A stretch of DNA of 61,412 bases, filler included, from Hausera hauseri (Eukaryota): NCBI GenBank assembly GCA_046269625.1. It is 11 parts of 11 records of this genome, joined end to end, with 100 filler letters (N's around TTAATTAATTAA, not from the genome) between each part and the next. Parts side by side here need not be neighbours in the genome. Positions count along the whole stretch, not along the records: positions 12,378 to 18,476 come from JBJURY010140760.1; 10 more parts are not named here. One strand, given 5' to 3'. The notes beneath the pieces are model-generated. The model did not search any database, was not told where the DNA came from, and saw only the letters and a program-made list of their open reading frames with translations. The position numbers and the translations under genes are program-made. Position 1 is the stretch's first letter. Every line of letters starts with the position of its first letter. This document shows, piece after piece, positions 3,831-58,699 of this stretch.

Positions 3831-4934
3831 ATAGGCTGCACAATACAAGTACTAAAATGCAGTCGATAAAACAACTGCTGAAAACGTGGGAAAACAACAA
3901 CTTCAGATTAGAAGGTTTATTTTAATAAATATAGGTTGACAGAGTGATCTCGACGTCGTGTGTAGGGGGAGTTGGACTCGACACCGTGTATGAAGTTGAC
4001 GGAGATGTCCTCGACACCACGTGGTATTTAGTCGATGTTGTCTAGTCTGTTTTGAGACAACATTTCCGTAAATCTGCATTTCGGTTTTCGTTATTATCGT
4101 CACGGCTGCTGCTGTCGATGTTTGGTTGTTTCGGTTTTTTGCTTCGCGTGTAGTTATCTGCAGAAAAGCTAAATGAATATGATAAAAATATTAAAGAAAT
4201 TGATCAGGAAATTATCTGCGTTCTTGTCTGCATCCATTCGATTGAATTTGTATTTGATATCTGATAGTGACGATGGGAATCACTGTTGACAATTGAATAG
4301 GTTTGTTCGCCATGTGAAAACGATAAGGTGTTGATGACAGTATGACTGGCAGAAATCGTGTTCTGATGAGCTGTCGTCAGTTTTGAGGAAACCACGTGAC
4401 GTATTCGAGCCGATGGACAAGTTTTATAACGAATTGATGAGTGATGGGCTCGTCGTAATTTCAGTAATTGCCATGGTCAATAATCAGTATCACTGGATCA
4501 TCGAATAGATCGGGAAACATCGATAGATCGGCCATTCTATTTGTTATAGGTAATGATGACCATGTTGAAGCGGTGTCTGCGGCTGACGACGACGGTGTCA
4601 ACGATGCAGATTTAGTAAAGTTGTGGATTTTCCCTTTTTTGAAAAATTCGACTCTTCTACTAATCTGTGGATTTAAACATGGGTTTAAATCCACAGGTTT
4701 TTGTTAATAATTATGCCTATGGGCGATTTCGTGATTTTTTAGTATGTGATTGTTTTTGCTCTTTGATTTTGTAAAGCAATGCCTTACATATATTATGGCC
4801 AGAATATAAGGAAATCAAAAATCTACTCCTAACCTTTGTAGCAGTAGAAAAAACTATCGAAGACGAGTAAGAACCAGAATTCAAGCGAATAAGAATGGGG
4901 AACGTCGAAGGTTATCTGATAATTGAGTTAGAAA

Positions 4935-5631
4935 ATGTATATCTTGAAAAGGAAGAAATGTGCTGAAAATCTCAGAGAGCTACTCCGTGGAAAACTTATT
5001 GTTGGAATTGAATTGCCATGGTTATACAAGCAAATGCAGCTAAAGGAAACAAACATCTTCGGTACGCTTAATGTAGATCAAAAATTTAATTTACCAAATA
5101 AGCAATGGAAAAGAGAAGGTACATTACCCGAACAATTAACCAATCTACGACAAGAATACAAAATTAAACTTAACCGTCAGGGATCCCCATATTATATTTT
5201 TCCAAGCAGACCCTTGTCTAAAAATGACAAACATCCCCAACAAGAAATAACATGTAACACCATCTTGATTCCGGAAGTAACATTACAGCATCTGGACATA
5301 GATACAGTTCAAAACTGGGATAAAATATTTACTAACAGAAAGTCGCCGAATAGGGTTTGAAGATATTGCCAAACAAGGACTGATCTGTATGGAAGGTATC
5401 GATAAAGTATATTTAAAGAATACAGATATCCAAATTAAAAGGAACGACCTGCCATGTGCCGTACTTACCAATCAAGGAGAAGCCCGGCTACAAATCCGTA
5501 ATAAAACAGTAATCGTTTCCAAAGAGATTATAATACTTCCTAATTATTCCTACAAAGGCCATTGTCAAATTCAACCTCTAGATAACTGTCCATTATACTT
5601 AATACAATTATTTAAAAAAATACCCATATGA
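4935..5631 (+). pseudogene. Degraded coding sequence of unknown origin (ORF fragments of 141 and 80 aa)
   Basis: Adjacent same-strand ORF fragments with protein-like composition; no family recognised. Confidence 0.3.
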
Positions 5632-6475: not shown

Positions 6476-7406
6476 TGGAGGTATTTTGAGTTCTATTCTC
6501 GTAGCCTCGTTCTTTAGTATTATCATACAATCTCTTATTATTTCGGTTCCTATTACGATTGTCACCATCATTATTCCGTTCAAATCTATCGCTCTGTTTT
6601 GCATATCTATCTAATTCCATTTCTAAATTTTGCGCTAACTGTAATGCAGTCTCAAAATTGTCTGATCGGGCTAAGATTAATTGCTTAACTAAATCTCTGG
6701 ACCATATTTTGTTTATTAACTGCGTCATCATCATGATGCCTAAATCTGGTGGGCTAGACTTTTCTGCAGCTTCAATTCTGCATCTGTCTTTACTTTAGCC
6801 GCGTTAGCTATCCTTAATGTATTTACATAACTATTAGCAAGTTTCTTTAATGCAAATGCGAAATGAGTAACCGATTTACCCTTTTGTTGGGTTGTATTCT
6901 GAAAAGCCATAAGCTTCTGTTGTGGCGTAACTCTCGGCAATAGCTTTTGGTTTAGGGCTCCTACTACAGAGGACCATGATTTCTTTTCATCGTTTGTAAG
7001 TTCACTATAGGCATGTGCAGCCAGATTATATCAAGTATAGAGACAATCGCTTAATCATAACTTCGGGCGCAAGGCCGGCACTTTCTGCATGCAATTTGTA
7101 AGTCCTCAGAAAATCATTTAACCCATCCGAGTCTCCGTCGTATGAGGGTAAATTTAACGAGTCGAGCGTGAATATATCAAGTATATGAGCTACTGCTGAG
7201 TTTTCTGTTGCCATTCTTATTCTATTTTGTCTGTCTATTTTAATTCTAGGAGGAGCTTTAAATTCTTTAACAGAGGTTAATTCAGTATCAGATAAACAGT
7301 GCTTATCGATTATCTTATCCTCGATGTAAAGCTTATTTCGAGTTTCTCTTTGATTACGTTCTTCTATGCCGTTCACTAATAAGTTTTGATATGAGTCAAC
7401 TATCAA
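6476..7406 (-). pseudogene. gag: Ty3/Gypsy family-1 gag (capsid-like domain followed by an Arg/Asn-rich tail)
   Basis: LPSYDGDSDGLNDFLRTYKLHAE..KRLSLYL..QQKGKSVTHFAFALKKLA is a retrotransposon-gag motif set. It lies directly downstream of the LTR and PBS and is homologous to 47757-48650. Confidence 0.85.
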
Positions 7407-7550: not shown

Positions 7551-7567
7551 TTCTGCTAGGGTCGCCA
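7551..7567 (-). promoter_or_regulatory. Primer-binding site TGGCGACCCTAGCAGAA (possibly complementary to a tRNA-Arg)
   Basis: A TGG-initiated motif immediately after the LTR and upstream of gag. The tRNA identity is tentative. Confidence 0.7.
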
Positions 7568-7569
7568 AA

Positions 7570-8276
7570 TATTTTACAGTTGGGTGGTCCTTACCGTCTC
7601 CCACTATAACAATAGTTTATTTCAAGTTAAATTGCTTTTCAGCAGGTTAGGATTACCCGTTATTGAGTAATCTGCTTGTGCCTTAATAAATTTAGATAAT
7701 TTATGCTGTACTGCTGGTACTTCGTGCGGTTTAAATGCTTGTATTAGTTTATAAAATTTCAACTTAACTATGTGATTTTAAGTATAATTTACCCTTATGG
7801 TAGTCAAATCGTCCTTAAGAGATGATGAAAAACTATATAGGGATTTTAATAAACAATTTTAAAATAACCTTTATTCGATACACAGATTATCACAATAATT
7901 TCTCTAAACAAGAACAGTTCAAAATGATAGCGTAAGTAACAAGTCTTTGTCTTGGAATTTAGTTGTCCGACTTTAAGTCGTACACTGATTTCTGAATTCT
8001 AGTGGTTGGCGTACTGCTTATATATATTAGTAGCTTCAGTTCTATTTACATGTTTATAATACTATTCAAACAATTAAATTGAATTTTTCTATGTTTTAAT
8101 GTGTTTTCACTCATTTCTTCCATTACCAAATAGTTAGTACATATTTTGGTAATCCGACAATTCCATTATTAATATTTACAATCTAAATTCTTCGGAAATC
8201 TAATATTTACAATTACTACTTAAGTAAACAATTCGAGTCTTCGATTTCTTGATTGTTTACAATCCATTATGTTACA
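7570..8276 (-). repeat. Family-1 LTR (~700 bp)
   Basis: Begins TGTAAC at 8276 right after a polypurine tract and ends just before the PBS. Contains a TATA-like TATATATAA (~8018-8026) and a downstream AATAAA (7870-7875) on the minus strand. The end near 7570 lacks the canonical CA. Confidence 0.75.
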
Positions 8277-8288
8277 TCTCTCCTCCCT
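8277..8288 (-). promoter_or_regulatory. Polypurine tract AGGGAGGAGAGA
   Basis: Purine run abutting the TG start of the LTR. Confidence 0.8.
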
Positions 8289-8508: not shown

Positions 8509-8643
8509 TCAAAATACTGGACATGTTGCTTTTCCATTGTCGAGTGTCCATTTTTCCATGCAATCTCGGCAGTATTTATGGCGGCAATTGTGGTTATCTA
8601 ATACCACATATCCTTGCCTCAAATTTGCGTCGCACACAGGGCA
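8509..8643 (-). pseudogene. C3HC4 RING finger at the 3' end of the family-1 accessory region (not in the ORF track)
   Basis: Manual translation gives CPVCDANLRQGYVVLDNHNCRHKYCRDCMEKWTLDNGKATCPVF*A. Seven of eight Zn ligands are intact, and TTT-TGA is one substitution per codon from TGT-CGA (CPVCRA). Confidence 0.85.
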
Positions 8644-10710
8644 TTCGCTATCTTTTTTGTTCCAATCATCTCTGTCTAAGTCGAGGTTTTATAACGGTTA
8701 AGTATAATTCAGTCCCATCTCTTTCTCGAATAGATACCTCGATCGGTATTCCATATCCATCGTCTCCTCTACCGTAGTTCGTGGCCAGAATCCTTATATT
8801 GCGACCGTCTTGAACTAACCTATACGATTGTAGATGTTCATCCTTTTCTGCCTCTGTTGGGGTTTTTTCGAACTGTAGAACTGGCAAGTCTAATTTGCAT
8901 TTCTTTTTATAAGTCATTTCAAACATCAGTTTAACCGGTAAGGCTGCTACTCGAAATTCTAATCCATAATCAATAGCTTCTAAGCCTCGTCCGCTTATTC
9001 TAAACGTGCTAAATTGGTATTGATGCCCTTCGTTACAATCCCATTGCTTGTTCTTTATTTTGTAGTAAACTTCTCCGTCGACCAGATGAATAAATATATC
9101 TTCCACTTGGGCAGTTCTATTCTGTATTAGTTCCTTAAGATTATACGATTTGGCTTGATTGTTACCGCGCATCGCGTATATCAGAATTGTGCGACTCCTT
9201 TAGGTGGTCCCTTTTAAGTCGTTGGGTATTTCATTTACTTTTCGATATTCGACATATGCTTCTGTCCGTAGTGCGTCATTTATTCTTAGGTATATGGCTT
9301 TAGATTTGAGTATAAAAACTGTTCCATATGTTTGTAAGAAGTCGCCGATTCTAGGTCGGCTGCTCGCACTTACCATTCTGAAAGAAAATGCAAAATAAGG
9401 GTCAATCCTAAAACAAAGTATTGTTCGAAATTTGAATCCATTCTTTGTTTGATAGTGGAATAACCCTATCTATAGTTTTTTCTATTTTAGCGGTAGTCGT
9501 AGTCTCATCCTTTATTTTCTCATAAATGAGTGGTTTCGTTACGACAATCTCGTTTAAGGTTCCTATTGTGAATACTCTACCTTGTTTATTCTCTGCACCC
9601 ATTTGTATTATATAGTCTGTTTTAGGTTTCAATCTGATACATTTGATTCGGTAGTTGCCTTTTGACAGTGACACCTTTTGATTATCGTGTATTGTTTGGC
9701 AGCTTATTTCTACATTGTAGTTAAGTGTTTCCTCCACAATGAACGTTATTTCGCGCTGTTGTGCCCAATATTTTATAGGGATTATTTCTAGATTCTGCTA
9801 AGACGATTTATTCGTTTGAATGATTCTGATGAGTGCAGTAGTAGTAGATTTTGTTTTTGTATTCGTCGTCGTTTCAAGTGAATTCGGCTTGATTGAATTT
9901 CTAAATCGGTACCTTCCTAGATAAATACTCGACTGGTTTGGTTTGACATCATATAAGTCTAACTGAATTCTATATTTATATTTTTGGGGTAACTTGCAAC
10001 ATCTTTTCGGTTGCTCGACGTCGATTTGACAGTACTGTTGGTTATGAGCTGGTATGTTCTCCTTCAGGAATCAGACTGAGATCACTCGACCGTTAATCAA
10101 TCGTACTTCTGTGTTTATTTGAACACAATTGTCCTTTGGATTTTCTGTTATACTTTCGATATTTTCTTCCAGCATCCGCTTTACTGAATCAAAGGACTGG
10201 AGTATTTCGTTGCGTTTTATCCCATGATGCTTGTTCCAAGCAGGGATAACTAATTGAAATTGTGGTTCTATTTCGTAGATTCTAGATGATTTCCGTGAAT
10301 ACATTCGGTAGGTAATGTTATAAGTATGTCCAAAATCCGCAGTGCAACATTGCGTATGCTTTCAGGCTCGAAATCACAATTTATTGTTTTTTTTGTCATT
10401 ATATCATCTAGGGCAATTTGAAGTCTTTCACCATTGTGGTGTGGTCTCTGTACTTTAAATCCAACGCATGTGGAGTTTGGCAAATAATAATGAATTTTGA
10501 CTGATTGTAACAACGTAATTCCTTCTTGCCTTGGGATTTCTTCTAATGTTGGTATCCTTTCCGTTTTATTAACCTCTGGTTTAAATCCATTTTTCTGCGC
10601 TCCGTATACATTTTTAATGTAGATCCGTCGTGCCACCATTTAGTTTGTTCTCTCGGAATACAAGAAGCAATTATCGATAATGCTAAAACTATCTGCACAT
10701 ACGATATGGG
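8644..10710 (-). pseudogene. Family-1 post-integrase accessory protein: signal-peptide-like segment, Cys-containing beta-rich/FN3-like domains, Thr-rich linkers
   Basis: Hydrophobic YVQIVLALSIIASC (10640-10701) follows the integrase. FN3-type motif CIRLKPKTDYIIQMGAENKQG at 9579-9641. TTTNTKTKSTTT and ETTTT linkers. Homologous segments occur in contigs C and J. Confidence 0.7.
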
Positions 10711-12277
10711 TCTGGTGATAATCGACGAGGTCTTGTTTTCTCGCGGTCTTAGATTGTAATGTTTAGCTGGCCTTATAACGGTTTTAACTACTCTTTGAAT
10801 CAATACCACTTCCTCTTTTCCATTTTTATTGATATAAACCGTGATTGGTGTTGTACGGATGATTTCATATGGTCCTCTTCCAGTAGGTGTTAATTTCAAG
10901 GATGTACCTTTCTTCGCGACTGGGTAATGTAGGCAAACCCCATTTCCCTTTTCCAGATCATGAGGCTTAGTCTTTTTATCGTATTGTTTTTTAAATTGTT
11001 CCTGGTATTCGAGTGATAATGTTTTCGCAACCTCCCAACACTTTTGTAATCTTGTCTGTAAAACTTCGGCAAAGTTTTGCTCTAAATCCTTGAGATTTTT
11101 TTCATACGGCGTCATGCCTAGATCGGCAGGTAAGATTGCCTCTCGTCCATACATCATAAAGAACGGTGTGAACCCTGTTGCTGGATGTGGAGTCGTACTA
11201 ATCGCGAATTGTGTTCCATCTGGGAATTCATCCCAATCCTTTTGATTTTTTGCCACTACTGTTGATAGTATCCGAATAACTGTTGCGTTCATTCGCTCAA
11301 CCATTCCATCACATTGGGGATGGCACGCGGTAGTGGTTAGACGTTCAATTTCAAATATTATGATAATCTTTTTTAATAGTTCGCTTGTGAAGTTCTTTCC
11401 TCTATCAGTTAGAATTTGTTCTGGTGGTCCATATCTGCAGATGATTTTTCTTACCACTACGTCGGCTAAAGTTTCTGCCTTTTGGTGCCACTAGTTCTAC
11501 GAAGTGCGTTAGTCGGTCCACACATGTCAGGATATACCTGTTATTTTATGAGTTTTAGGCAAGAGTCATACTATATCCATAGATATGGCTGACATGGGCT
11601 TATCTGGTACATTTATGGGTTTTAATTCTGCTACGTAGCCTTTCGTCTTCTTTTGTTTTGTCGCGCAAACTTTGCACGCTCCTACCCAATTCTTTACATC
11701 AATATAAATACTTGTCCAGTAGTATTTATTCAATATTCTTTCCAATGTCTTCTTCCAGGATATATGTCCGGCTATATATGAATCATGTTCGGCCATGAGT
11801 ACTTCGGTGCGCAACTCTTTTGGAATAACTATTAATCTTCGTCTCTTCCGTTCGTAATACAGGATATTATCCTGGTTTTCGGCGTGATATTTATGTCCGT
11901 GTTTTTGCAGGTGCTTCTTCAGTTGCCGTCCCTTGGGTATATCGCCGTTTTGTGCCAACTTAACAATTTGATGATTAACTTTATCTTGGGCTTGCTCGGC
12001 CGTAATTCTAATTGTCTTATCTATTATTAGAGTTTGTTGTCGTTCGATTAGTTGTTCGAGTTGCGGCTTTTTTGCTATAGTAATTGTACTCGATTTTGTC
12101 TTAAGCCTTGATAGTGCGTCAGCGTCGACGTGTTTATTTCACGGTTTGTATTGGAATTCAATGTTATATCGTGAGATCTATTCAATCCAACGGTTTAATC
12201 TACATGTCGGATTATTAGCTCGTCCTTTCAATGTCGTAACTGCCTTGTGGTCGGTTACTATAATAATCCTTTGTCCA
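10711..12277 (-). pseudogene. pol: Family-1 pol, 3' part (end of RNase H, HHCC zinc finger, DDE integrase, GPY motif)
   Basis: EHDSYIAGH..CKVC, SMDIV, ILTDRGKNFTS, HPQCDGMVERMN, GRGPYEI. Confidence 0.95.
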
Positions 12278-12377: not shown

Positions 12378-13590
12378 GAGTTGTAATTTCGTCACCTGTG
12401 TTTTCATATATGCGTGACTCCGCGCGGATTTCGTCTAATGTGCGCAATGTAACTGTTTCATTTTGTTTATTTTCCACATATACGTGTATTATGTAATCGG
12501 ATTGTGGTTTTAACGAATTACATTCTGTCTGTTGAGTGTTTTTAAATAACGTTACCTTTTTACTGTATGTTGTTCGGCAGCTTATGTGTATGTCATAATT
12601 TAATTTTTCTTGCGCGAAGAACACAATTTTGAATGTGTGCCAAAAATTTAATGGGTATGTTTTCTAATTCTCTTTTAGACGCACTTTCCGAAATAACAGG
12701 TATGACAGTATTACTAACTCGGGTAGTCGGCTTTTCGGTTGTCGCCTCTACTGTAATTTGCCATATTTTATTTGGGTAATATGTTTGCAAATGTTTGCTC
12801 GGTTTATTTGGTCTTACTTCGTATAAGTCGAACTTTATTTTGAATCCTTGATTTACTGGTAGCTTGCAACATGGGTGCTGTACACTGGCGTGAATAGAGC
12901 AGTAATTTTTCCTCGGGTTTCGCCCGTTTACCGCTTCGAAGACAATACTAATTTCTAGACTGTCGTTCAACCCTGATCGAGCATCTACTTGGATACATTG
13001 TTTTTCTCTATTTACCGAAATTTGCTTTATATTTTCGTCCAGTAACTTTACCACTGGATTGGTGGATTGTGGGATTTCTATGGGCTCTTTTCCGAAACGT
13101 CCAGGCCAAGGGGGAATGACCAACTGAAGTTTTGGGTTTACTTCTAGATAGTATTCTGACGAATCAGTTAAGTATAATCGATAAGTGAGAATGTAAACAT
13201 GTTCGTACTCTACGTCGCAACACTGGGTATAATTTCCGGGTTCAAAACCACAGTTTTTCATCACTTTTGTTGTCACGTCATACAGAACAATCTGAAATTT
13301 TCCAAAATCGTGGTGTGGTTTCCAAGTTTTAAACCCTACGCACGTGGAGTCTATCGAAAAGTAATTAAGCGTTATTGACTGTAATAATTTAGTGTCTTCT
13401 TGCTTTTGTATCTCCTCGGTTGTTGGCCTCCTTTTCGCTATATTGTTCTTCTCCTTTAATCCGTTTTTTCTTATTCCGTATACGTCTCATAACGTAGATT
13501 CATCGTCCCACCATTGAGTTCGTATTCTTGTAATATAAGAAGCAAACAAAGATAGTGCTAAAATAATTTGGACATATGAGATCGGCCTAG
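12378..13590 (-). pseudogene. Family-1 post-integrase accessory protein, second copy
   Basis: YVQIILALSLFASY..QWWDDESTL follows the integrase; Cys-rich domains; FN3-type motif CNSLKPQSDYIIHVYVENKQN at 12460-12522. Confidence 0.7.
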
Positions 13591-16500
13591 CTATTTTTGA
13601 GGAAGATTTTACCTGTCGTTGACGTAAATTGTAACGTTTATTGGGTCGTATATCTGTCTTGACGACTCTCTGTACTGACACGATTTCTTCTTTTCCATTT
13701 TTATTAATGTACACCGTCGTTGGTGTGATTTTAGTAATTTCATACGGTCCTCGGCCACTTCGGGTCAATTTCAACGAGGTCCCTTTTCCGGCTGCTGGAT
13801 AATGTACATAAACCCAATTTCCTTCCTTTAAATCATGTGACTTTGCCCTTTTGTCGTATTGTTTTTTAAATTGCTCTTGGTATTCTTGCTATAATTATTC
13901 GGCAATTTTCCAACATTTTCGTAATCGCGCCTGCATCACTTCTGCAAAATTCTGTTCTAGATCTTGTATATGGTGTCATTCCTAGGTCTGTAGGCAACAC
14001 AGCTTCATGCCCATAGATCATAAATAATGGTGTAAATCCCTTTGCTAGGTACGGTGTGGTATTCATGACAAATTGAGTCCCTTCTACAAATTCGTCCCAA
14101 TCCTTTTGGTCCTTAGCCACTACTGTGGATAGTGTACGTATGACGGTTTCGTTCATTCGTTCAACCATCCCATTACATTGACGATGATACGCAGTAGTAT
14201 TTAGTTGTTCAATTTCAAATATTTTGGTGATCTTCTCAAATAGTTCACTCGTAAAATTTCTTCCACGGTCGGTTAATATTTGATATGGGGTCCAATATCT
14301 GCAGATGATTTTTCTTACTACAGACTCTGCCAAGGTTTCTGCCTTTTGGTCAATTAACGCTATCAACTTGATAAAATGAGTTAGTCGGTCAATTCAAGTC
14401 AAGATATATTTATTATTTTTGAGAGTCGTAGGTAACGGTGCTACAATGTCCATTGACATGGCTTGCATAGGCCTGTCTGGTACGGCGATTGGTTTTAGTT
14501 CTGCAATGTAGTTCTTTGTCCTTTTTTGTTTTGTTCCACATATTTCACAAGCATTTACCCAACGTTTCACATCAATATAGATACTGGGCCAGAAATATTT
14601 ATTCAAATTTCTTTTTAACGTCTTTTTCCATGACATATGTCCTGCTAAGTATGAATTATGTTCCGTCATAAAGACTTCGGTCCTTAAACTTTTAGGAGTA
14701 ACTAATAATTTTCTCCCTTTTCGCTCATAGTACAAAACGTCTTAACTGCTCTTATTCAAGATACAGTATTTGTATCCATGTCTGTGTAAGTGCTTCTTTA
14801 GTTGTCGTCCTCTTGGCATAATATCTTTTTTAGCAAATTCTATAATCTGCTGGATAACTTTATCTTTCCTTTGTTCTACCGTAATTTTGATGGCTTTATC
14901 TGTTGTCAATGTACGTTGGCGGTCTATTAATTCTTCGAGTTGAGTCCTCTTCATTATGGTGATTGCACTCGTCTTAGTTCTTAACCTAGATAGCGCGTCG
15001 TCATCTACATGCTTATTTTCCGGTTTATAGCGAAATTCAATATTGTATCTAGAGATTTCTTCGATCCATCGATTAAACCTGCATGTCAGATTATTTGTCC
15101 GTCCTTTTAGAGTCGTGACGGCTTTTAGATCAGTGACAATTATAATTTTGTGCCCGTACACGTAAACGCTGAAGTGTCGCAGGGTTTCTTTTTCGGCTAG
15201 AGTTTCTAATTCGGTAACGGAATAATTTTTCTCGACCTTTCTCAGAGAGCGCCCTCCGTAAGCAATTGGATGTTCTAATTCTTCGTCTTCTCTCTTCTGT
15301 GCTAATTCATATCCAATGCTTTCCTTGCCGGCATCCGTCTTGATTATAAAGGGTAAATTGAAGTCCGGGTATAGTAGGACTGGTTCACTTGTTAGTATCT
15401 TCTTCATTTCGTCGAAAGCTTTCTGTTCGACATCTGTCCACCTCCATCTAATTCTTTTTTAGAGTAGACGATATAAGGGTGCATTTATTTTCGAGTTGTC
15501 TGGCACATAAGTGGCATAATATCCACAGAGACCTAACCAATGTCTAAACTCTTTCTGATTTTGGAGCTCCATGCAATCTGATATTTCGTTCAATATTGAC
15601 TTATCTGGTTTTGATCCTCCTTCCCCAACTATATGACCAAGGCAGGACACTGCATTTTGGGCCTATTTACACTTTTTTGGATTTAATTTCAATCCGGCTT
15701 GTTCGAGTCGCCTCAGTGTATGCTCGATGTCCTTTAGATTTTCTTCCTCTGTTCTTCATGCTATCATCACGTCGTCTAAATACGCAAAGGCATGATCTAG
15801 TCCCATCAACATTTTGTTTATCATTCTAGTAAAGATAGCTGGTCCAGTGGTAATGCCAAACGTTATTACATTAAACTCGTAGACACCATCGTGTGTTTTG
15901 AATGCAGTTTTTTTATATCGGTCTTCGTCCTCAATTTCTACTTGCCAATATCCGGATTGTAAATACAGCGTGGTAAACCATTTTGCCCCTGAGAGCCTGT
16001 CTAGAGCTTTTTTTACCGATGGCAATGGAAAAGAATCCTTCATGATGAGATTGTTTAACGCCATGTAGTCAATGCAGAATCAATGTTTTGTAGTACCCTT
16101 CTTTTTGACCATAAGGATCGGTGAGTACCAAGATCTATAACTGGGTTTAATTATGTCGGCCTTAATTATTTGCTCGACTTCCTTTGTTATCTCGGGCCTT
16201 AGAGAATGCGGTGGAGGATACCACTTCGGCATTTTTTGGTCTTCCAGATCTATCGCTTCATTTGAACCAGGCTTTTTGTTAAGCGGAATAGTTAATTTTT
16301 ATGCCTTTGCCCTGCCGATATTTTCTTCATCCTTAGCAATAAGTGACTTATAACGGTATAATAATTCATAGAATCTACAATAAGATTCGGGGGAAAACCT
16401 AGTTTCAACATGCGGTGGAAATTCAGCATATTTGTAAGGTTTTTTTTCAATAGTTATGGTTGACACTCTATATGTATCTCCCAATGTTGTATAAGCATGG

Positions 16501-17100
16501 AGCTTCACGGGGGTCGGCTCGCTATTGGCTATTCTAATTGGTACTCGACCAGAGCGCACCCTGGTCAGTATGTTACTCAGCGTTATATTTGGATCTAATG
16601 TCTCCTTTGGTTTGAAGTATATCGGTTGATCCTTATCCTGTTGGACTTCAGCATAAATTATTATTGCAGCTCTTAGTGGAATATTTTCGTCCACTGGTAT
16701 TCATACTTCTCCGAACTTCCTATCTTTGGCGTTTTTACGCCCTTATTTGGTCTGATTTCTATTCATTTTCCTGTCTGTAAGTCAATTGGTAGTCTTTTTA
16801 GTAGAACACATCCTAGAACTACGTCGTTTGTCAATTGTTCCATAACTGCGAATTTATGGTGGAAAAATTGTCCACCTATTTATACTTCTGGGTTCCATTT
16901 AAATATTGGTTTTGACACCTGACAGAAGGTTCCTGTGCTTCCGGAATCTTTTACTGACGGTGAATAGAACTGTCTTCTTAGCCTTACAGGGATTGAATTA
17001 TTTTTAACGTACGACATTTCCAAACCTGTATCAATCAAGGCATATACTTCCCAATACTCAATAATAATTTTGGCGAAGGGCCTACCTTCTATACTGTTCC
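13591..17100 (-). pseudogene. pol: Family-1 pol: protease, RT, RNase H, integrase (frameshifted)
   Basis: ALIDTG (17024-17032), LQSGYWQV..TFGITTGPAIF..YLDD, FIIKTDA..YSVTELETLA, HHCC, LTDRG..MVERMN, GRGPYEI; Gypsy domain order. Confidence 0.95.
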
Positions 17101-17358
17101 GAAACAGTTTGATGCAATCTTCGGGTGTTTTGTTGCCGATATTTTGTGCCCATTAATTCGGATTTCTGGAGAGGGTACCGTGTTTTTTGCTATTTGGCTC
17201 AATTCTCCGTTTGGATATAGATCATTATTTTCAACGTTTTCTTCTTCCACCTCACAAGTGTTAATTAATGGTTCTCGATTGTTAGTATATGGTTCCATAT
17301 TCCGGAAGGTCTTAAATTTTGGATTGTCCCAGACAGGCGATTTTGTTTCTATACTTCA

Positions 17359-18476
17359 CTATTTTCTCGGAAAGTGCAATATTCTGGGGTCGTTGAGAGG
17401 CTGTCGATAACACATTTTCCTAAGGACTCCGTAACGTTTTGTTCCTTTATAAGGATCTCCTAAACTAATTGTCCTTTTATAGATTTCTGTCTGATATAAA
17501 CTCATTGATTGTTTGTCACAGTTTTCGTAGACTGGAGCGGTAGGGGGTAGCATAGGCAATGGTGCCTTAACGACAGAATACATCTTATGTCTGTTTGTTC
17601 CTGAAAGTACTTCTCCTCCCTTAGGCTCGTCATCCTCTGAATTATTTCTTCGCGTATTAGGTTTTGTAAATTTCCGCTTGTACAATAACATAGGCCTTCC
17701 TTTTCGTTTACGATTATAATAACCGACATGGCGTTCTACGTCCGAATTCCATATATTTTCTTCGTATGCTTTTAAGAACTTTCCAAAAGGTGTTATGATT
17801 GCAGTCAGTATTTTGCATGAAAATCCGGGCAATGTAAATATTTCATACCCATTAATTACTGCTTGGATGACTGCCTTAATCATTTGTATCAGAAAATATA
17901 TCGCTAAGAATCCGGATGCGGCTTGTCCAAAAATCAAAAATCTTCCCAAAATTTTGTAGAGTATTTTTGTAATTACTCGCTAGCAATGGTTTACTCCAAG
18001 CAAGGATTCCTATTTAGCTTGATATCGAGTATCGTGTACTACGGAGGCCATAACTCGGTTTAATTCGTGTGTTCGCTGTCGTAAAAAAGCGAGGTATTAT
18101 CTGAAGGCTTCGATTTCCTTAAGCCTATATATGCCTTTTGACGAGGTGTCTTGAAATTTGTCGTCTGTAATTCCTTTTGAAAGATTTGTTCCTGTTAATT
18201 TATTTGGAGCAGCAGTAATATTTCCATTTGGCAAACTGGCCCAATCTGTTTCACTACGTCTATCATGGGTTCTCCTAAGCTTGCTTTATAATCCTTAAGG
18301 ATTGTTTGTTCAGTTGCATTGTCTAATAGCACTCTAGTGAGTGGCATAGCTAACTTTGGAATATTCTGGTAAATCACGGGAAGTTCCTGCATGCAGCGTT
18401 TTTCTTCAACGTTGATTGGTGCATCTCTTTTCTCACATTCGTAAGTCAATAGTACTTCACCGGTAACTCGACCAAA
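17359..18476 (-). pseudogene. env: Chuvirus-like class III fusion glycoprotein (C-terminal half, TM region and basic cytoplasmic tail) upstream of the protease
   Basis: GRVTGEVLLTYEC..CMQELPVIYQNIPKLAMPLTRVLL, KGIYRLKEIEAFR.YLAF and GRFLIFGQAASGFLAIYFLIQMIKAVIQAVINGYEIFTLPGFSCKILTAI follow the motif series I recall for chuvirus glycoproteins (AGEVxHIIKC, CYxELPV, GIYxxEDL..HIMFP, FGxxSAG..IHGYALH.VYGWS). Confidence 0.8.
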
Positions 18477-46771: not shown

Positions 46772-47680
46772 CGAAATCACAAAGAGAGGCTTCACGAAAT
46801 TTTGGAATTTCATAAATCTTCCATTAACAGAATTTTGAAAGAAAGCATTTTAAAGCCATTCAAATTTACAACTGATGAACACCTGAAAGATGATGACAAA
46901 CCCGAGTGCACTCAGTTTTGCCAACTTGTAATTAAAAATAACTTACGAAAAAGACGGAGTTATAAAAATTGTGTTACACTTGAATGGTTTGAAAATTCAC
47001 CACAATTGTTTTTATTGTTGCGAACAAAACGAATTTAGGGAAAACAGTTCATGAAAAATGAAATCATAGTCAAATAACACTCTGGGCAATCGACCAAATA
47101 ATTCAAGAAACAATGAATGGAAAAGATATGCAGACATTTTGAGTGAAGTTGTTATACCTACCATGACATAAATCAGATATATTCATCATTATTTTCAACA
47201 AGACGGTGTCCCTCCGCACTTTTCTTTGATATTCAGAGAGCTATTGCTTCAAATTTACATAATCGTTGGATAGGAAGAATGGGATCAATACAGTGGCCAC
47301 TGCGTAGTCCCGATTTGTCTATAAACGACTTTTGGTTATGGTGGTATATGCGCGATAAAGTTTATGAATATCCCCAAGCTACAACAATTGAGGAACTAAT
47401 TCAACGCATGGAAAAAAATTTGCTACTATTAACCTGAGGATGGTGAAAAATGCCTTCAAAAGCTTTGTTAAAAGGTGTAAGTTATACATCGCCTATAACG
47501 GTAATCATTTTGAAAAATATTTATAGCCATAATCACCATCAATTATTAATTAAATAAAGATATTATTGGATGGAGAAGTCTTCCCAAATTACCACCGAAA
47601 TAAATTAAAATAACAAGCCTTCTTAATTATCAATCATAAATTATGACAATAAAAATTGCGGGATCAGCTGGATCACCCTG
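46772..47680 (+). mobile_element. Tc1/mariner-superfamily transposon of DD41D (rosa-like) type, 3' part
   Basis: FQQDGVPPH..RWIGRMGSIQWPLRSPDLSINDFWLW. The spacing between the last two catalytic Asp codons is 122 nt (41 codons minus 1 nt). Ends ..CACCCTG followed by TA (47681-47682). Confidence 0.88.
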
Positions 47681-47756: not shown

Positions 47757-48650
47757 AATCTGTCGGCATACGATGATGATCCGGATAGATTAAATGAATT
47801 CTTGAGAACGTACAAAATGCACGCGGAAGGTGCCAGTCTTACCCCTGAAGTAATGATCAAACGTTTGTCGTTATATTTGAAGAATTTGGCCGCCGATGCT
47901 TATAGCGAGCTTACTAATGATGAGAAATCTTGGTCCTCCCTGGTAGGAGCAGTGAACCGAAAATTATTGCTGACAGTAACGCCATAACAGAAACTTATGG
48001 CATTTCAGAATAGGGTACAACAGAAGGGTAAATCAGTAACCCAGTTTGCATTTGCATTGAAGAAACTCGCTAATAGTTATATAAGCACATTGAGAATAGC
48101 TAATGTAGCCAAAGCTAAAACCGACGCTGAACGAGAGCTTGCAGAGAAAGCATCCCCACCAGATTTGGACGTCATGATGACGGCAAATTGGTTCACGGAA
48201 TCTGGTCCCGAGATTTAGTAAAACAGTTGATTTTGGCCAGGCCCGAAAATTTTGAGGGCTTTGCAGCTGGCCCAAACTTGAAAATGGCACTTGATAGATA
48301 TGCCAGCCGCAATGATAGAAATGGCAGAAATCATGACAGAAACGACCGTAGTCGTAACGATAATCGCGGAAGGGGCGATAGGCGATTGAATGGTAACAGA
48401 AATTATGAGAATAGAAATAGTAACGACTGCAGGAACAGTAGGAACAATAGTTATGCCAATGATAGAAATATGAATAAGTCGAATCCCAGTATGGATACAA
48501 ATCGATAGAGCCATAAAGGCTCTAATTACCAGAACCGTTATAAAGATAATCGAAATAGTGACAGTCGACGGAATATAAGTAGTACACAAGGTTCGTCGAA
48601 CCAATACAATAGGGATTTAAACAGATCAAAGTCGCCTGTAAATGAAGATG
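47757..48650 (+). pseudogene. gag: Family-1 gag, second copy, with an Arg/Asn/Asp-rich C-terminus
   Basis: Close protein match to 6476-7160 (LNEFLRTYKMHAE, QQKGKSVTQFAFALKKLANSY, WSRDLVKQLILARPENFE). Confidence 0.88.
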
Positions 48651-49079
48651 GTTGACAGAGTGGGTCGAAATAGAAATTTAGTTTGCTTTACCTTAAGTTT
48701 GCTTTAGTTAAGCTCAGACACTATTAACTGCGTTAGAAACTAACCATAGGTTGAAAAGAGTAGTTCGTAATTTAGAACACATGACGAATGGAATCAGATG
48801 CGCAATGATAAATCGGCTTAAAGAGAAACCGGTTAATCATCGAAGCAACATTGATTTAGAAATATTGGGTATAGACCACCACTTTAATGGAAATGATAAA
48901 AATTGCTTTCGCAGTACCAAAACGTTATACAAACTTAGAGGATCGTATTAAAATTGAAAATAAAAAGAAATCACAGATCTACAGTTTAAGGAATCGGATT
49001 ATGTTTGTAAATAATGAAGAGACAAGATACAAAATAAAGACTCGTATTTTGAAATTTGACGAATAAACGGATGAATTTA

Positions 49080-51281
49080 ATTATGATTGCCGGATTATGA
49101 ACTTTAAGAGGTCCCGATGATGAATCAAAAGACGCTTATAAAACGCAAGAAAAGGCGATATTGGCAAAGCCCGTAATAGCTAATCAACTAACGGAATGGT
49201 CCGAGTTAATATCGAAACTAACTAATCCAGTGGAAAGTCGTAGGGAGGATTTTCAGGAAAGCGAGCCTACAGTTAAGAAACAACTAGAGAAAAGCGCACG
49301 GAATCTAATACAATGAGAGCAGAAGTAGATATCCGGACTCAATTCGATGCATTACGGCAAATGAATTTCATAAAAAAGAAACGAGAACTGGCGATATTGG
49401 AAGAGATATAAAATGATCGAAGAAACAAACTTTGTAGAAAAGCGAAATATGATTTGCAACTTCTACCCAAGATTAAGAAACATCCGTCTAGAAGGAATCC
49501 AGCATTTAAGCGCTAAATCTATTGATAAAATCACAATTCGCGATCTCGAAACTTTGAATATTTGTCCGGAACATAGAACAGCTATAGAGGAAGCAATGAG
49601 ATTCCTACATAAACCACAGGAATATATGGCCGTGGCAGATCAAAATTGCCATACTGAGTTAACAAAAATAAGGAACGACACTCATCTCGGTTTTGAAGAA
49701 GGTAAGTTCGTGAAGAAATTGCTCGATGCGACAGACCCCGATTCAAGAATTCTTAATGAGATGTACGAGTTAACACTAATGGTAGAAATGACAGAAATTA
49801 ACAATGAAAAGATGAGATAATTGATGTCTCAAATACGACAGGCCGAAGAAACGTGCATTAGAACTAAACAAAGAGTAATAAGATTAGACGAACTAACAAA
49901 AGAGCTCGAAATTTATCGGAACAAATATGCTTTTACTGAGTCAGAAATTAATAGGAAGATAGAATTTGTACAAAGATGGCAAAGGGATGTAATTATCGAA
50001 CTGACTATCATCAAAGAGGATTCATTCCTGCTAACAAACTGGACAAACTGTTAAAACTTATCCAGTATGCTTGTGGAAACGGAATAGGTTTCCGGACCAC
50101 ACAGATGAAATAGAGCCGAGGTTAAAGGAAATTCTAGAAAACGTACAAAGAATGAGTACAGCGATAGTAGACTATGGACTTTCAGAAATCGGAAACGATC
50201 CAGAATGGGATGCCTATTTAGATGCGACAAATGTTGAAAATCCAATGACCAGTACGGATAAATGAACCAGAAATATGTCCGCGAGGTAGGAGGTTCAATG
50301 TGGAGATACTCTTGGACTCAGTGCTAACTGAGAGGGATTTAATCGAATTAATTAATGTAAACATAACTGAAAATAAGTTGAGACAGCTTATTCCGACTCT
50401 AACTGAATTATCCAGTAAGAACACGGTTTACAGCACAGTACCAAAACTACATATGCATATGTGAAGGATCTGAGAGTGGTTGATAAACAATGGTGAAATA
50501 ATTGAGTTAAGCTATAGATTCTACTTTAGAGGTAGGATACTGGACGACTTAGAAAAATTAATAGACGTCGGGATTATACCCGATGAAACAAACCGGATAG
50601 TGGCCGTAGTAGCCAACGAGCAGACTAAGGAAGAAACCACGCGTAAGGCTAAGACCAAACAGTGCGTAGGATAAATTATGGAAGTCCGAGACGCTGCAAT
50701 GTACTTCGAGTATTTGCAGACGGAAAAGGATAGGGAACAATATGATAAGAACTTAGTGTCATTAAGCAGAATAATAGCAACTACCCCTAGACATAAACAT
50801 CCGGTCGGCAAACCCAAGACATGAGAAGAGATCGATTATAATGGATAATTGATTAGAGAACTGCGACAGATGTCCATTCCGACTTTCAGCGCAGAGAATG
50901 AAGAATTGAACGAATTAATGAAGAATTTAATACGCATCGTAAATCACTCAAACCTTGAAGGCGACACGTTAGATGATAATGAGAAAGCGATATTTAACGT
51001 CGCTAGAACAATGAGAAACTCCCGCTTCAAATTATCGAAAAGTAATTTGACCGATGAATTGGCGATTGAAAAGATCATGGTGGAAAACACGATAGAAGAA
51101 CTAAGAAAAATTTTACTGTATTTAGCTATTAGGACAAACTCTATTCGGGAGAATGAAATTAATGGAGCTGAGCTTGGCACGGAAGGCGGCTAGAAAACTA
51201 CCCCAAGAAGTATGTTGGTCAAAATTTCTCGATAAAGAAGATAAACGACCCAATAATAGTGGCCGATTTGAAGACATGCTA
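49080..51281 (+). pseudogene. Long decayed ORF of unknown function downstream of the family-1 gag
   Basis: A chain of same-strand ORF fragments (49413-49820, 49821-50054, 50071-50265, 50480-50674, 50849-51193), Glu/Ile/Leu-rich, with no protease or RT motifs. Confidence 0.55.
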
Positions 51282-51381: not shown

Positions 51382-51739
51382 CAGCACTGCATATTTTCTC
51401 AAGGTTCGAAATCACATTTTTCTTTTCTTTTGTGGTTAGGTCAAATAAAACAATTTGGAACCTTCCGAAATCATGGTGTGGCCTCCAAGCCTTAAATCCA
51501 ACGCATACTGCGTTTGGCGAGTAATAGTGAATTGTCATCGATTGTAACAATTTATTATCTTCTTGTCTTTGAATTTCTTCGACTGTTGGCTTCTTTTCCG
51601 ATTTAACTGCTTCCGATTTTAATCCACTCTTCCGAATTCCGTATATATCTCCTAACGTAGATTCGTCATGCCACCATTGCGCTTGTATTCTTGGGATGTA
51701 TGAGGCAATTAGTGATAATGCTAAAACTATCTGAACATA
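51382..51739 (-). CDS. Start of the family-1 accessory domain, in one open frame with the integrase C-terminus
   Basis: The ORF starting at 51931 reads GRGPYEV..RPISYVQIVLALSLIASYIPRIQA-QWWHDESTL..CVGFKAWRPHH without a stop. Confidence 0.8.
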
Positions 51740-54700
51740 TGAAATTGGTCTAGTATCTATTGAGGAAGTTTTCATATCACGTTGGCGTAAATTATAACGT
51801 TTGCTGGGTCGTATTTCTGTCTTCACAAACCTTTGTATTGACACAACTTCTTCTTTTCCATTCTTGTTGATATACACTGTGGTTGGCGTGACTCTGGTGA
51901 CTTCATACGGTCCTCTACCCGTGCGAGTCAATTTCAGTGAGGTACCTTTTTTGGCTACTGGATAATGTACATAAACCCAATTCCCTTGTTCTATATCGTG
52001 CGGTTTCGCTTTCTTATCATATTGCTTTTTAAACTGTTCTTGATATTATTGGGATAATTCTTTGGCGATTTCCCAACACTTTTGTAATCGCGTTTGTAGC
52101 ACTTCTGCGAAATTCTGTTCTAAATTTTCGGAATTAACTGTGTATGGCATCATTCCTAAATCTGTAGGTAACACAGCTTCACGTCCATACATCATAAAAA
52201 TGGCGTAAATCCTGTCGCTGGATGATGTGTAGTATTAATTGCGAATTGGGTTCCTTCTAAAAATTCATACCAATCCTTTTGGTCCTTTGCTACTACTGTT
52301 GATAATATGCGTATGACGGTAGCATTCATCCGTTGGGCCATTCCATTACACTGAGGATGATATGCAGTAGTTGTTAATCTCTCGATTTCAAATATTTTGG
52401 TGATTTTCTCGAATAATTCACCGGTAAAATGTCTTCCTCTATCTGTGAGTATCTGGTCTGGGGGTCCATATCAACAAATGATTCTTCTTACCACGGCTTC
52501 TGCTAAGGTTTCGGACTTCTGATCTATCAATGCGACCAATTCGACAAAATGAGTTAGGCGATCAATGCATGTTAAGATATACTTATTGTTCTTGTGAGTC
52601 GTAGGAAGGGGTCCTACGATATCCATCGACATGGCTTGAATAGGCCTGTCGGGTACATCAACTGGTTTTAATTCGGCGATGTAATTTCTCGTCTTCTTTT
52701 CTTTAGTTGCACATACTTCACACGCGTTTATCCAATTTCTTACATCGATATAGATACTAGGCCAAAAGTATATGTTCATTATTCTTTCTAATGTTTTCTT
52801 CCAAGACATATGTCCGACTAAGTATGAATCATGTTCTGACATCAGTACTTCAGTTCGTAAACTTTTGGGAATAACTATCAGCTCCTTTCCTTTCCGTTCG
52901 TAATATAAAATGTCTCCTTTATTTCCGTCATTCAGGACGCAGTATTTGTGTCCGTGTCTGTGTAAATGTTTCTTTAATTGTCGTCCTCTTGGTATGACAT
53001 CCTTTTTAGCAAATTCTATAATCTGCTGGATGACTTTATCTTTTCTTTGTTCTGTTGAAATTTTGATTACCCTATCTATTGTTAACACGCATTGGCGGTC
53101 TATTATTATTTCAAGTTGACTTTTCTTCATTACAGTGATTGCGCTTGTTTTAGTCTTTAATCTCGATAGGGCATCAGCGTCTACATGTTTGTTTCCTGGC
53201 TTATACTGGAATTCGATATTGTATCTGGAGATCTCTTCGATCCATCTGTTTAGTCGGCACGTTGGGTTATTTGCTCGACCCTTTAAAGTTGTAACGGCCT
53301 TGTGGTCAGTGACGATTATAATTTTCTGCCCGTAAACATAAATGTTGAAATGACGCAGTGCTTCTTTTACGGCTAGAGTTTCCAGTTCGGTAACGGAATA
53401 ATTTTTCTCGGCCTTCTTCAAAGAACGTCCTCCGTAAGCGATTGGGTGTTCCAATTATTTATCTTCCTTTTTCTGCGCTAACTCATAATCAATGCCTTCC
53501 TTACTGGCGTCTGCCTTGATTATAAATGGTAAGCTAAAATCTGGATATCTCAAAACAGGTTCGCTTGTTAATATCTTCTTCATCTCACTAAAAGCTTTCT
53601 GCTCAACGTCTGTCCATTTCCATTTAATCCCTTTTTTAAGCAGACTATATAAAGATGCATTAATTTTTTAATTATCTGGTACGTAGGTTGCGTAATATCC
53701 GCATAATCCTAGCCAGTGTCTTAATTCTTTCTGATTTTGTGGCTCTATGCAATTCGATATTTTGTTCAATAACGACTTATCCGGTTTCGAGCCTCCTTCT
53801 CCAACTATATGACCTAGGTAGGATACGGCGTTTTGAGCCCATTTGCATTTCTTCGGATTTAACTTCAATCCGGCTTGTTCCAATCTCATCAGTATGTGTT
53901 CAATATCTTTTAAGTGTTCTTCCTCCGTTCTCGATGCTATCATCACATTATTTAAATATGCAAAGGCATGATACAGTCCCATTAACATTTTGTTCATCAT
54001 TCTTGTGAATATGGCTGGTCCGGTAGTAATACCAAACGGCATAACATTAAACTCGTAAACACCATCGTGAGTTTTAAATGCTGCCTTATAACGGTCTTCG
54101 TCCGCTATTTTCACTTTCCAATATCCGGATTGTAAGTCCAGAGTGGTAAACCATTTCGCTCCTGAGATTCTGTCTAAGGCCTCTTTTACTGAGGGCAATG
54201 GGAAGGAATCCTTCATCATAAAATTATTTAGAGCTCTGTAATAGAAACAAAATCGGTGCTTCGTAGTGTCTTTCTTTTTAACCATAAGAATAGGTGAGTA
54301 ACAGAATCTGTAACTGGGCATAATTATTTCTGCCTTAAGCATTCGTTCAACTTCTTTCGTTATTTCGGGCCTTAACGAATGTGGTGCAGGATACCATTTT
54401 GGCATCTTCTGATCCTCCAGATCTATCTCTTCATTTGAACCAGGCTTTTTCTTGAGCGGAATAGTCAGTTTTAGCGCTTTTCCTCTACAGATATCTTCTT
54501 CATCCTTAGCAATAATCGGTTTATAGCGGCATAATAATTCGTAAAATCGACAGTAAGATTTCGGGGAGAACTTAGTTTCAACATAAGGCGGAAATTCGGC
54601 GTATTTATAAAGTTTCTCTTCGATAGTTATCGACGATATTCTATATGTGTCTACTATAGTAGTATAAGCATAGAGTTTGATAGGAGTTGGTACATTGTTC

Positions 54701-55300
54701 GCTATTCCAATCGGTACACGACCGGAGTGTACTCTCGTAAGTATGTTACTAAGTGTACGTTTCCTTTGGTTCGAAGTATACTGGCTGATCGTCATCCTGC
54801 TGAATTTGTGCGTAAACTATTATCTCCGTTCTTAGTGGGATATTCTCGTCTACTGGTATCCACACTTCCTTTCTATCCTTAGAGTTTTTTACGCCCTTTT
54901 TTGATCTAATCTCAGTTAATTTTCCTGTTTGTAAGTCAATCGCCACCTTTGGTAATCTTTTCAGTAGATCGCATCCTAGAACCACGTCATCGGTTAATTG
55001 TTTTATGATTGCAAATTTATGTCGAAATGTTTGCCCAACTAATTGGACTTCTGGATTCCATTTAAACATTGGTTTTGACATTTGACCAAAGGCTTCTGTA
55101 CTTCCTAGATCTTTCGCAGATGGAGGGTATAGTTATCCTCTTAGCGTCTGAGGTATCGAATCATTTTGATGTACGACATCTCGGAACCCGTATCAATTAA
55201 AGCATAAACTTTCCAATCCTCAATAATGATTTTGGCGAAAGGTCTTCCTTTGATCACTGTTCCAAAACAGTTTGATGCTATATTCAAACGTTTAGTCATT
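51740..55300 (-). pseudogene. pol: Family-1 pol, third copy (PR, RT, RH, IN)
   Basis: ALIDTG (55186-55194), TLDLQSGYW, MPFGITTGPAIF, YLNN (mutated YLDD), TDHK..HVDADALSR, HHCC, SMDIVGPLP. Confidence 0.95.
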
Positions 55301-55489
55301 GATATTTTGTGTCCGTTTATTCGTGCTTCTGCGGCGGAAACTATGTTTTCCGACAACTGTCTTAATTCTTAGTTTGAATATAATTCATTGTTTTCTACAT
55401 GCAGTTCTTCCATTTCATGAGTACTGACTAGCGGCTCGATTGTTGGTATGTAGTTCAGTATGTTGGAAGGTTTTAAATCTTGGGGTGTC

Positions 55490-57097
55490 TCAAACCGTTG
55501 AACTAGTTTCGATATTTTTAGGTTCTCTCGGTGAATATAACATCTTGGGACCATCTGCGGATTGTTGATAGCACATTTTTCGTAGAATTCCGTAACGTTT
55601 CGTTCCTTCGTAAAGGTCTTCTACATTAATTGTTCTTTTATAAATTTGTGTCTGATATAAGCTCATGTACCGTTTGTCGCAATCGTCGTAGATTGGAGCG
55701 GTAGGAAGTAACATGGGCAATGGCGCTTTAACGACAGAGTACATCTTATGTCTATTAATCCATAAAAATGCTTCTCCTCCCTTAGGCTCGTCATCATATG
55801 AGTTATTCTTTCGAGTATTGGGTTTTGTAAATTTTCGTTTCCGTAGGAATATAGGCCTTCCTCTTTGTTTACGATTATAATAGCCAACATGGCGTTTTAC
55901 GTTCGATTTCCATCTATTTTCTTCGTATGCTTTCAAAAATTTTCCAAAGGCCTTATGATTGCAGCCAGTATTTTACATTAAAATCCGGTTAGTGTAAATA
56001 TTTCGTATCCGTTTATTACTGCTTGGATGACTGCCTTAATCATTTGTATCAGAAAATATATCGCTAAAAATCTTAATGCGGCTTGTCCAAAAATTAAAAA
56101 TCTTCCCAGATTTTGTAGATTATTTCTGTTGTTACTTTCGGATAGTGGTTTATGCCAAGTAATGATTCCCATTTAGCCTGATATGTGATGTTGTCTACTA
56201 CAAAGACAATTGCTTGGTTTAATTCATGTGTCCGTTGTCGTGGAAAAGCGAGAAATTGCCTAAAGGTCTCGATTTCTTTCGGCCGGTATATACCTTTCGA
56301 GGAGGTATCTTGAAATTTATCGTCTATAATTCCTTTTGCAAGATTCGTCCCTGTTAGCTTGTTGGGAGCGGCAGTGATACTTCCATTATGCAAACTAACC
56401 CAGTCTGTTTCGCTACGTCTAAACATCGGCTCTCCTAAGCCATTTTAGTCCTCATGATTTCTGTATCCAATTTGCAATCATTCATTATCATTTTGTGATA
56501 TAATTCCGTTAGTCTTTTATAGTAGAAGTAATCGTATCTATTTATCAGGTATTCGTCAATCCGAACATCCTACGTTTCCAATTTGTAAGTTTTTGCGTTT
56601 ATGTCTGTTTCGGCTACAAAGAACTCTTCGTAGTCCGTGGCGAACATTACTACATCGCAGTGAGTCATCATCTCTTTCTTAATAAATTTTAGTCCGTGTA
56701 AGTCCGAGATTAATATAGTAGGGGTAAGGTGTTCCGATACATCTTCGCGTGTTCCTAAATTAGCCTCCGATTTGTCTACCTATCGTTTCCGGTAGTTTCA
56801 TTAAACTTTAACTCTTTAATTTTGATAAAGTTAAAGCTTCTTCCAGACGAAGGTTCCCATATTATGACCGAGCTTCTAAAAGCACAGGTTCCGTCTTGTA
56901 AATGACATTTCTGATTCTCAGTATATAACTTATTGACACTATGGAACATTACCTTCTGTGATCGCATTTCTGATTTGTAGAAATCCACAACTACCACGTT
57001 TGGTTCTAATCCTTTACCGGTATCGTATTCTGCTCCATTGCAATGTCCGGTACGCATATCCAGCCGTCCAGTTACTAATTTTTATGCTGTGATTATC
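55490..57097 (-). pseudogene. env: Chuvirus-like glycoprotein, second copy (central ectodomain to tail, with an internal deletion)
   Basis: TGRLDMRTGHCNGAEY..NVVV, CHLQDGTC..IIWEP, HCDVVMFATDYEEFFV, DEYLINRYDY..ELYHKMIMNDCKLD, KGIYRPKEIETFRQFLAFP, TM FLIFGQAALRFLAIYFLIQMIK. Confidence 0.8.
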
Positions 57098-58657: not shown

Positions 58658-58699
58658 GATCACGAACCGGTCTTTTGTTGTTTATCAAAGTCGAAGCCA

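Follow-up and report, generated by a model that had tools for sequence, protein, structure and literature searches.

Does the virus-like glycoprotein that lies directly ahead of a gypsy-type protease in the genome of Hausera hauseri (GenBank assembly GCA_046269625.1) belong to the same protein as that protease and the rest of Pol, and how would a protein of this kind be put to use? The question is raised by a stretch of 61,412 nt, filler included (here the window), which consists of 11 contigs joined by N linkers and lettered A to K below; pieces of env-pol are found on contigs C, J and B. A preliminary description of the window placed a glycoprotein, a transmembrane (TM) region and a basic tail directly 5' of a DTG protease on the same strand, and this arrangement is seen in both C and J. 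These two copies (C, positions 12378-18476; J, 51382-57097) are 77% identical across 5,092 nt, and both run on the minus strand in the order C-terminal half of the glycoprotein, TM, a tail some 230 codons long, DTG protease, reverse transcriptase (RT), RNase H, then integrase. Contig B overlaps C and J at 70-72% identity. Nothing is seen 5' of env in C or J because both contigs begin within the ectodomain. A public run of 15.5 million contigs includes 14,564 that align to C at ≥80%, and the element is therefore a repeated family. Its pieces in the window are given below, with P and L numbers denoting relatives.

17740-18476, minus strand: copy C, C-terminal part of the Env ectodomain and TM (core 17854-17904), from PF24664 and the profile of the relatives
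17093-17739, minus strand: copy C, tail or linker with PTAP (17533-17544) and Leu-Tyr-Pro (17212-17220); dN/dS against J 0.11-0.16, with dS near saturation
16790-17092, minus strand: copy C, retropepsin with DTG (17024-17032), Pfam RVP, E = 3e-4
14742-16290, minus strand: copy C, RT (YLDD 15771-15782) plus RNase H, interrupted by stops, Pfam RVT_1 and RT_RNaseH
13620-14741, minus strand: copy C, integrase with H2C2, core and GPY (13742-13750), Pfam Integrase_H2C2 and rve
12378-13582, minus strand: copy C, signal-like segment past the integrase (13532-13582), then likely FN3-like ectodomain, cut by the contig end, from the HMM of the relatives
55950-57097, minus strand: copy J, Env ectodomain pieces and TM (hydrophobic segment 56047-56097), from tblastn of intact relatives and a weak PF24664 match
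54950-55949, minus strand: copy J, tail (PTAP 55694-55705) and protease (DTG 55186-55194), from sequence reading and Pfam
51382-54816, minus strand: copy J, RT, RNase H, integrase and start of the post-integrase ectodomain, from Pfam and ORFs
9400-12277, minus strand: copy B, final part of RNase H, integrase, signal-like segment and pieces of the likely FN3-like ectodomain, from Pfam, ORFs and the HMM
8515-9370, minus strand: copy B, accessory region, a frame open over 8666-9199 followed in another frame by a C3HC4 RING (8515-8646), zf-C3HC4, E = 1.5e-6
7560-8288, minus strand: copy B, candidate LTR region, from motifs recognized by eye
6476-7214, minus strand: copy B, start of gag, 3' of the candidate LTR, from a weak Retrotrans_gag match (E = 0.017) and 75% identity to the gag of contig I over 545 nt
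47757-48700, plus strand: contig I, gag, 5'-truncated, with an Arg/Asn-rich stretch, from tblastn to the Gag of P0053 (E = 6.5e-6)

The Pol order (protease, RT, RNase H, then integrase), the gypsy-type domains and the GPY/F motif are those of Ty3/gypsy elements (Metaviridae), and a search with the RT led to gypsy-type Pol proteins at 31-45% identity. The glycoprotein had been called a chuvirus-like fusion protein, and our results agree. In copy C it matches Pfam PF24664 (Monjiviricetes_fusion) over profile positions 372-600 of 653 with E = 8e-18, and the window env is linked to intact relatives by a profile match (probability 99, E = 3e-18). A low-confidence structure model of the relative P0049 (mean pLDDT 44) has chuvirus G as its best match (E = 2e-23) and, among solved structures, matches herpes gB (E = 1e-7). 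When the env sequence profile was compared with the PDB, proteases were the only matches. PF24664, the profile link and the model of P0049 together support the identification of Env as a class III, chuvirus/gB-type fusogen of a Ty3/gypsy element.

A phmmer/HMMER search of 1.84 billion proteins yielded 72 matches, whereas a word-based search with env-tail, aimed at longer relatives, had given none. A protease motif follows the env match within ≤400 aa in 10 of the 12 best phmmer matches and in 12 of 72 overall; the two top matches that have no such motif stop 14 and 46 residues past the env match. Env, protease and RT occupy one ORF in P0042, P0045, P0050, P0114, P0117 and L001, and five of these six polyproteins reach the integrase, with P0045 stopping in RNase H. 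L001 is a metagenome contig whose 3,426-codon ORF extends from env through integrase; it is the one relative locus among the 593 metagenome matches listed, and no relative was present among 26 pattern matches in viral contigs. P0114, P0117 and P0119 cluster with P0044, P0046 and P0056 and are not independent. P0042 carries the label of a bacterial MAG, where it is taken to be a binning contaminant. A Gag or a zinc knuckle precedes env in P0042, P0052, P0053 and P0056. The gag of contig I is similar to the Gag of P0053, and no window contig joins gag to env; by analogy with the relatives, gag would also lie 5' of env in the window family.

In the env tree (71 of 77 rows, six short matches being left out), the window env is sister to the clade in which env is followed by protease, with SH-aLRT 90 and on a long branch. 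The RT-RNase H of the window copies is about 40% identical to that of the closest relatives. A quick tree of all 49 rows placed C and J without resolution relative to the env-protease clade, and in a second tree of 22 rows picked from those 49 the two copies form a long branch weakly beside this clade (SH-aLRT 81).

The junction peptides quoted in the preliminary description are present in C and J. Its statement that the glycoprotein is in frame with protease-pol holds for one ancestral frame, to which selection and intact relatives point, but not for the copies themselves, as no window copy is open from Env to protease. In the interval from TM to DTG, copy C is broken by two adjacent stops (17356-17361) and by a 1-nt frameshift near 17093, ahead of DTG, that the preliminary description did not mention. 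Copy J has three stops and frameshifts near 55949 and 55435 in the same interval; the second of these is a 2-nt difference rather than the 1-nt shift reported earlier. From 55434 to the DTG protease, J runs in one frame with a single stop en route. Of the stops and frameshifts between TM and DTG, none occurs in both C and J, so the lesions do fall at different places, and a search for a conserved stop or an LTR between glycoprotein and protease found no shared stop and no LTR-like gap in either copy. The ectodomain of copy C is interrupted by three stops and by a frameshift near 18263, and that of copy J is without about 82 residues at 56438 when compared with an intact relative.

Comparison of C and J gave dN/dS values that are rough, dS being near saturation: env and TM stand at 0.10 and 0.11, the two tail blocks at 0.16 and 0.11, the protease at 0.05 and 0.18, and RT-RNase H and integrase at 0.05 each. 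In the annotated frame, the signal region included, dN/dS was 0.05-0.18 compared to 0.43-3.4 in the two other frames, again with dS near saturation. The low dN/dS therefore indicates that the tail was a coding stretch in the frame joining Env to protease. Purifying selection in a single frame acted across the whole junction, and the unshared lesions, this selection and the intact relatives point to one ancestral Env-protease frame.

Two other explanations bear directly on the junction. It is improbable that the element has the same Env-Pol order with Pol reached past the Env tail by programmed frameshifting or read-through, and hence made in smaller amounts than Env. A single ORF would make Env and Pol one to one, a wasteful ratio, and in C the way from tail to protease is blocked by two successive stops and a frameshift; J, however, is open at both places, and the intact relatives are uninterrupted through the junction. 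Seven contigs of the public run carry an indel relative to C at 17091, and from the public-run contigs matching C the break near 17093 is not general in the family. The other explanation, that the glycoprotein is foreign to pol, being the 3' env of an element in tandem upstream, an insertion nested there or a separate element of chuvirus origin next to it, we consider highly implausible. The same junction is found in two copies that have diverged by 23%, with coding selection across it and with neither a non-coding nor an LTR-like gap, even though contig B shows that the family can stand head-to-tail. The summed depth in the public run is far higher over env-tail than over the protease, a contig depth that cannot rank regions, and this would favour a foreign env; against it, the stretch of B from integrase to candidate LTR contains no gB-type env, and the closest env relatives are fused to a protease. 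This explanation is largely refuted.

The frame does not end with the integrase. In C, J and B it runs past the GPY motif to a hydrophobic segment. The post-integrase part of C has a single stop (13487-13489) and a frameshift near 12640; in J, an open frame (52045-51382) takes in GPY and the signal-like segment (51695-51745) and enters the ectodomain; and in B, an ORF (10543-11490) is open from the integrase core through GPY to the signal-like segment, after which the likely FN3-like ectodomain is present as frameshifted pieces. A signal, an ectodomain and a membrane anchor follow the integrase in five of five complete relatives (some segments identified by eye), a set that excludes P0115 beyond integrase, and L001 has a second FN3-like module located between proteases. 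The membrane anchor is not clear in the window copies, where the best hydropathy is 1.35, in B; a weak hydrophobic stretch of B near 9417 may be a broken anchor.

In an alignment the modules share two cysteines and an L-x-P-x-T-x-Y motif, which we chose from the FN3 pattern. The motif occurs once per polyprotein, always within such a module, in five polyproteins. An HMM of the modules, built with no window rows and applied to the window in six frames, has two significant places, 12430-12630 in C (E = 2e-8, a region outside the alignment) and 9534-9758 in B (E = 4e-8). In leave-one-out tests it recovered the four protein relatives with E from 2e-8 to 0.011. The module profile has 44 matches in the PDB (best E 0.003), and 41 of them are known FN3-containing proteins (IGF1R, fibronectin, gp130, Tie2, contactin and others); the three remaining matches, which include the top two rows, are RecA fusions on the tail of the profile. 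None of the eight modules matches Pfam fn3, the structure atlas gives fn3 as a lead only (scores 0.80-0.81), and a single-sequence fold of the post-integrase ORF of C has a mean pLDDT of 34, so the FN3-like nature of the modules is likely rather than proven. For the locus as a whole, the best explanation is that these decayed gypsy copies come from an element in which Env, protease-pol and the FN3-like region were very probably one long protein.

A candidate site for the release of Pol lies in the Env tail. Thirteen relatives were taken for a test of the tail, and 12 were evaluable, one having no anchor. In 10 of these 12, a Tyr-Pro pair precedes the first protease aspartate by 31-61 residues, compared to about 1.25 expected, in a search range that was set after seeing the data. 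Copy C has Tyr-Pro about 62 residues before this aspartate, and copy J has none. Aromatic-Pro is a classic retropepsin cut, and for this reason we favour Tyr-Pro as the site that may be cut to free Pol.

The hydrophobic segments and standard ER topology lead us to propose the following scenario. An internal signal would route Env into the ER, and the Env TM would keep the tail and Pol in the cytosol. Clustering of Env at the budding membrane would then bring the proteases together, and the protease would release Pol, the likeliest point being the Tyr-Pro that precedes the protease active site by 30-62 residues. Past the integrase, a second signal would give rise to a type-I membrane protein with FN3-like domains. 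Herpes gB depends on partner proteins for receptor binding, and the most likely role of the FN3-like protein would be that of a putative attachment partner of the gB-type fusogen; attachment is favoured because every complete relative has retained the FN3-like module, whereas the other cargo differs between them. These considerations lead us to speculate, with more doubt than confidence, that gag-env-pol retroelements would be two-glycoprotein enveloped viruses, with Env as fusogen, the FN3 protein for attachment, and Pol carried on the fusogen tail until the Tyr-Pro cut. One ORF would cross the ER membrane twice, and the division of labour would resemble that of herpes gB with gD or gH/gL.

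The same two features could have other roles. Tyr-Pro (LYPxxxL in C) and PTAP resemble late-domain consensus motifs and could be budding signals for ALIX and TSG101 instead of marking a cut, with the FN3-like protein acting not in entry but as a host-modulating decoy or as adhesion cargo, in the manner of Burro's Bcl-2, BIR and RING cargo; to this we give somewhat less than an even chance. PTAP is retained in the tails of both C and J, but P(S/T)AP is present in the tail of only one of 12 relatives, Tyr-Pro is held at a narrow distance from the protease, and aromatic-Pro bonds are classic cut sites of retropepsins. Regulatory cargo is common in these elements (the Bcl-2 match of P0049, ankyrin in P0114, the RING of B, the exonuclease of L001), which favours a cargo role for the FN3-like protein, yet this module is found in all five complete relatives and the other cargo is variable.

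Such cargo takes several forms. Two to seven protease-like motifs are present in P0114, P0052, P0043, P0050 and L001, some of them after the integrase and with cargo between, and the cargo may have been gained along with a duplicated protease. Immediately ahead of the Env signal, residues 9-70 of P0049 form a Bcl-2-like domain (Pfam E = 1e-3), as in Burro, and Bcl-2-like stretches were seen by eye in P0043, P0073 and L001. L001 also has a separate ORF past the polyprotein (10617-12107, plus strand) with an RNase_T/DEDD exonuclease domain (E = 1.4e-5), comparable to the exonuclease ORFs that rotifer LTR elements carry according to the sections covered of PMC5408684. In contig A, degraded pieces at 4787-5613 (plus strand) are 48-63% identical to residues 364-639 of P0073 (E = 4e-82), a module with no Pfam match that lies before env in this other env-bearing protein.

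Copy B extends beyond the FN3-like ectodomain, in the order unassigned frame, RING, purine tract, candidate LTR, PBS-like motif and gag. The frame at 8666-9199 has no Pfam match and no usable match in the structure atlas. The candidate LTR is about 700 nt long, with a purine tract at 8288-8277, TG as its first letters at 8276, AATAAA and TATA-like motifs and a PBS-like TGG motif at 7567, all recognized by eye; the region has no open frame longer than 67 codons and a GC content of 29%. No second copy of it is found within the window. The gag of B thus stands head-to-tail with the pol-bearing part, and the join is either a tandem with one common LTR or an assembly join.

The window contains further pieces of interest. 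Long and (nearly) open host-gene pieces (RAI16/FHIP-like, flavoprotein and kinase) occupy 1006-3921 of contig A and 45697-46671 of contig H, both on the minus strand, immediately upstream of gag-like sequence that belongs to another gypsy family, common to A, D and H. These host genes are indicative of an animal, and the FHIP/RAI16-like ORF has one relative, at 65%. In contig I, long broken frames of charged, helical-looking sequence follow gag (48700-51281, plus strand); they have only weak and unrelated Pfam matches and are probably the gag-env linker. Upstream of the truncated gag on the same contig, at about 46800-47500 (plus strand), is a fragment that, by eye and from its motif, resembles part of a Tc1/mariner transposase. 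Contig K has a 564-codon open frame with no Pfam match (58658-60352, plus strand).

How does the element compare with known ones? NERVs reportedly have one continuous gag-env-pro-pol ORF with extra ORFs, and in Anakin elements env is said to come after pol. The planarian Burro, published in 2019, has env in frame between gag and pol with matches to mononegavirus glycoproteins, and in Burro and GYPSM1 Env is part of one polyprotein between Gag and protease, with extra cargo domains (Arkhipova and Yushenova, PMC6431247, sections covered). Burro proper is larger than 30 kb with LTRs and has an ORF of about 4,900 aa with BIR, BCL2, MATH and ankyrin cargo. Compared by description only, the window element resembles Burro in having Env before protease in one polyprotein, and its relatives share Burro-type cargo (Bcl-2-like, ankyrin). 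Unlike Burro, the window pieces show no Bcl-2, BIR or ankyrin and a single clear protease before RT. The contigs that they come from are 4-7 kb long.

GAG-ENV-POL errantiviruses with an HSV/gB-type ENV are described from Nematoda, Bryozoa and Platyhelminthes, along with 114 gypsy elements whose glycoproteins are chuvirus-like (Chary and Hayashi, eLife, PMC13524379, sections covered). By description, the window Env is likewise class III, HSV/gB-type and ahead of protease-pol; the elements described in those sections are intact, whereas the window copies are decayed. NERVs (Sacco et al. 2022, as cited in the covered part of PMC13524379) are metaviruses with a captured RNA-virus glycoprotein and, like the window element by description, ENV before POL. 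Anakin elements, BEL/Pao elements with a chuvirus glycoprotein (Dezordi et al. 2020, PMC7642597, parts covered), have a glycoprotein of the same broad family as the window Env (PF24664 class), but their Pol is BEL/Pao and not gypsy. Troyka has no env, no GPY/F motif and CG termini (PMC12440569, parts covered); identity with Troyka was rejected, as the window element has env and GPY.

The preliminary description was therefore right about a fusogen in one ancestral frame with a gypsy protease-pol, but not about the novelty of the env-before-pol order, which is already published in the sections covered of PMC6431247 and PMC13524379. As that order is in print, the window element is a divergent addition to a known class, and its gene order contributes only a divergent lineage. 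The value lies in the parts that had been overlooked, the post-integrase FN3-like protein and the candidate cut site. In the paper texts searched, no account of an FN3-like protein past the integrase came up; the covered main text of PMC13524379 does not contain 'fibronectin', 'polyprotein' or 'accessory', and section 7 of PMC6431247, as covered, mentions neither an FN3-like nor a second membrane protein past the integrase of Burro.

How a gB-type retroelement Env could attach to cells, and how Pol could exit from a membrane-anchored polyprotein, goes unmentioned in the source sections covered. For these two steps the conserved, likely FN3-like predicted surface protein and the conserved Tyr-Pro site are concrete and testable candidates, and intact natural ORFs exist.
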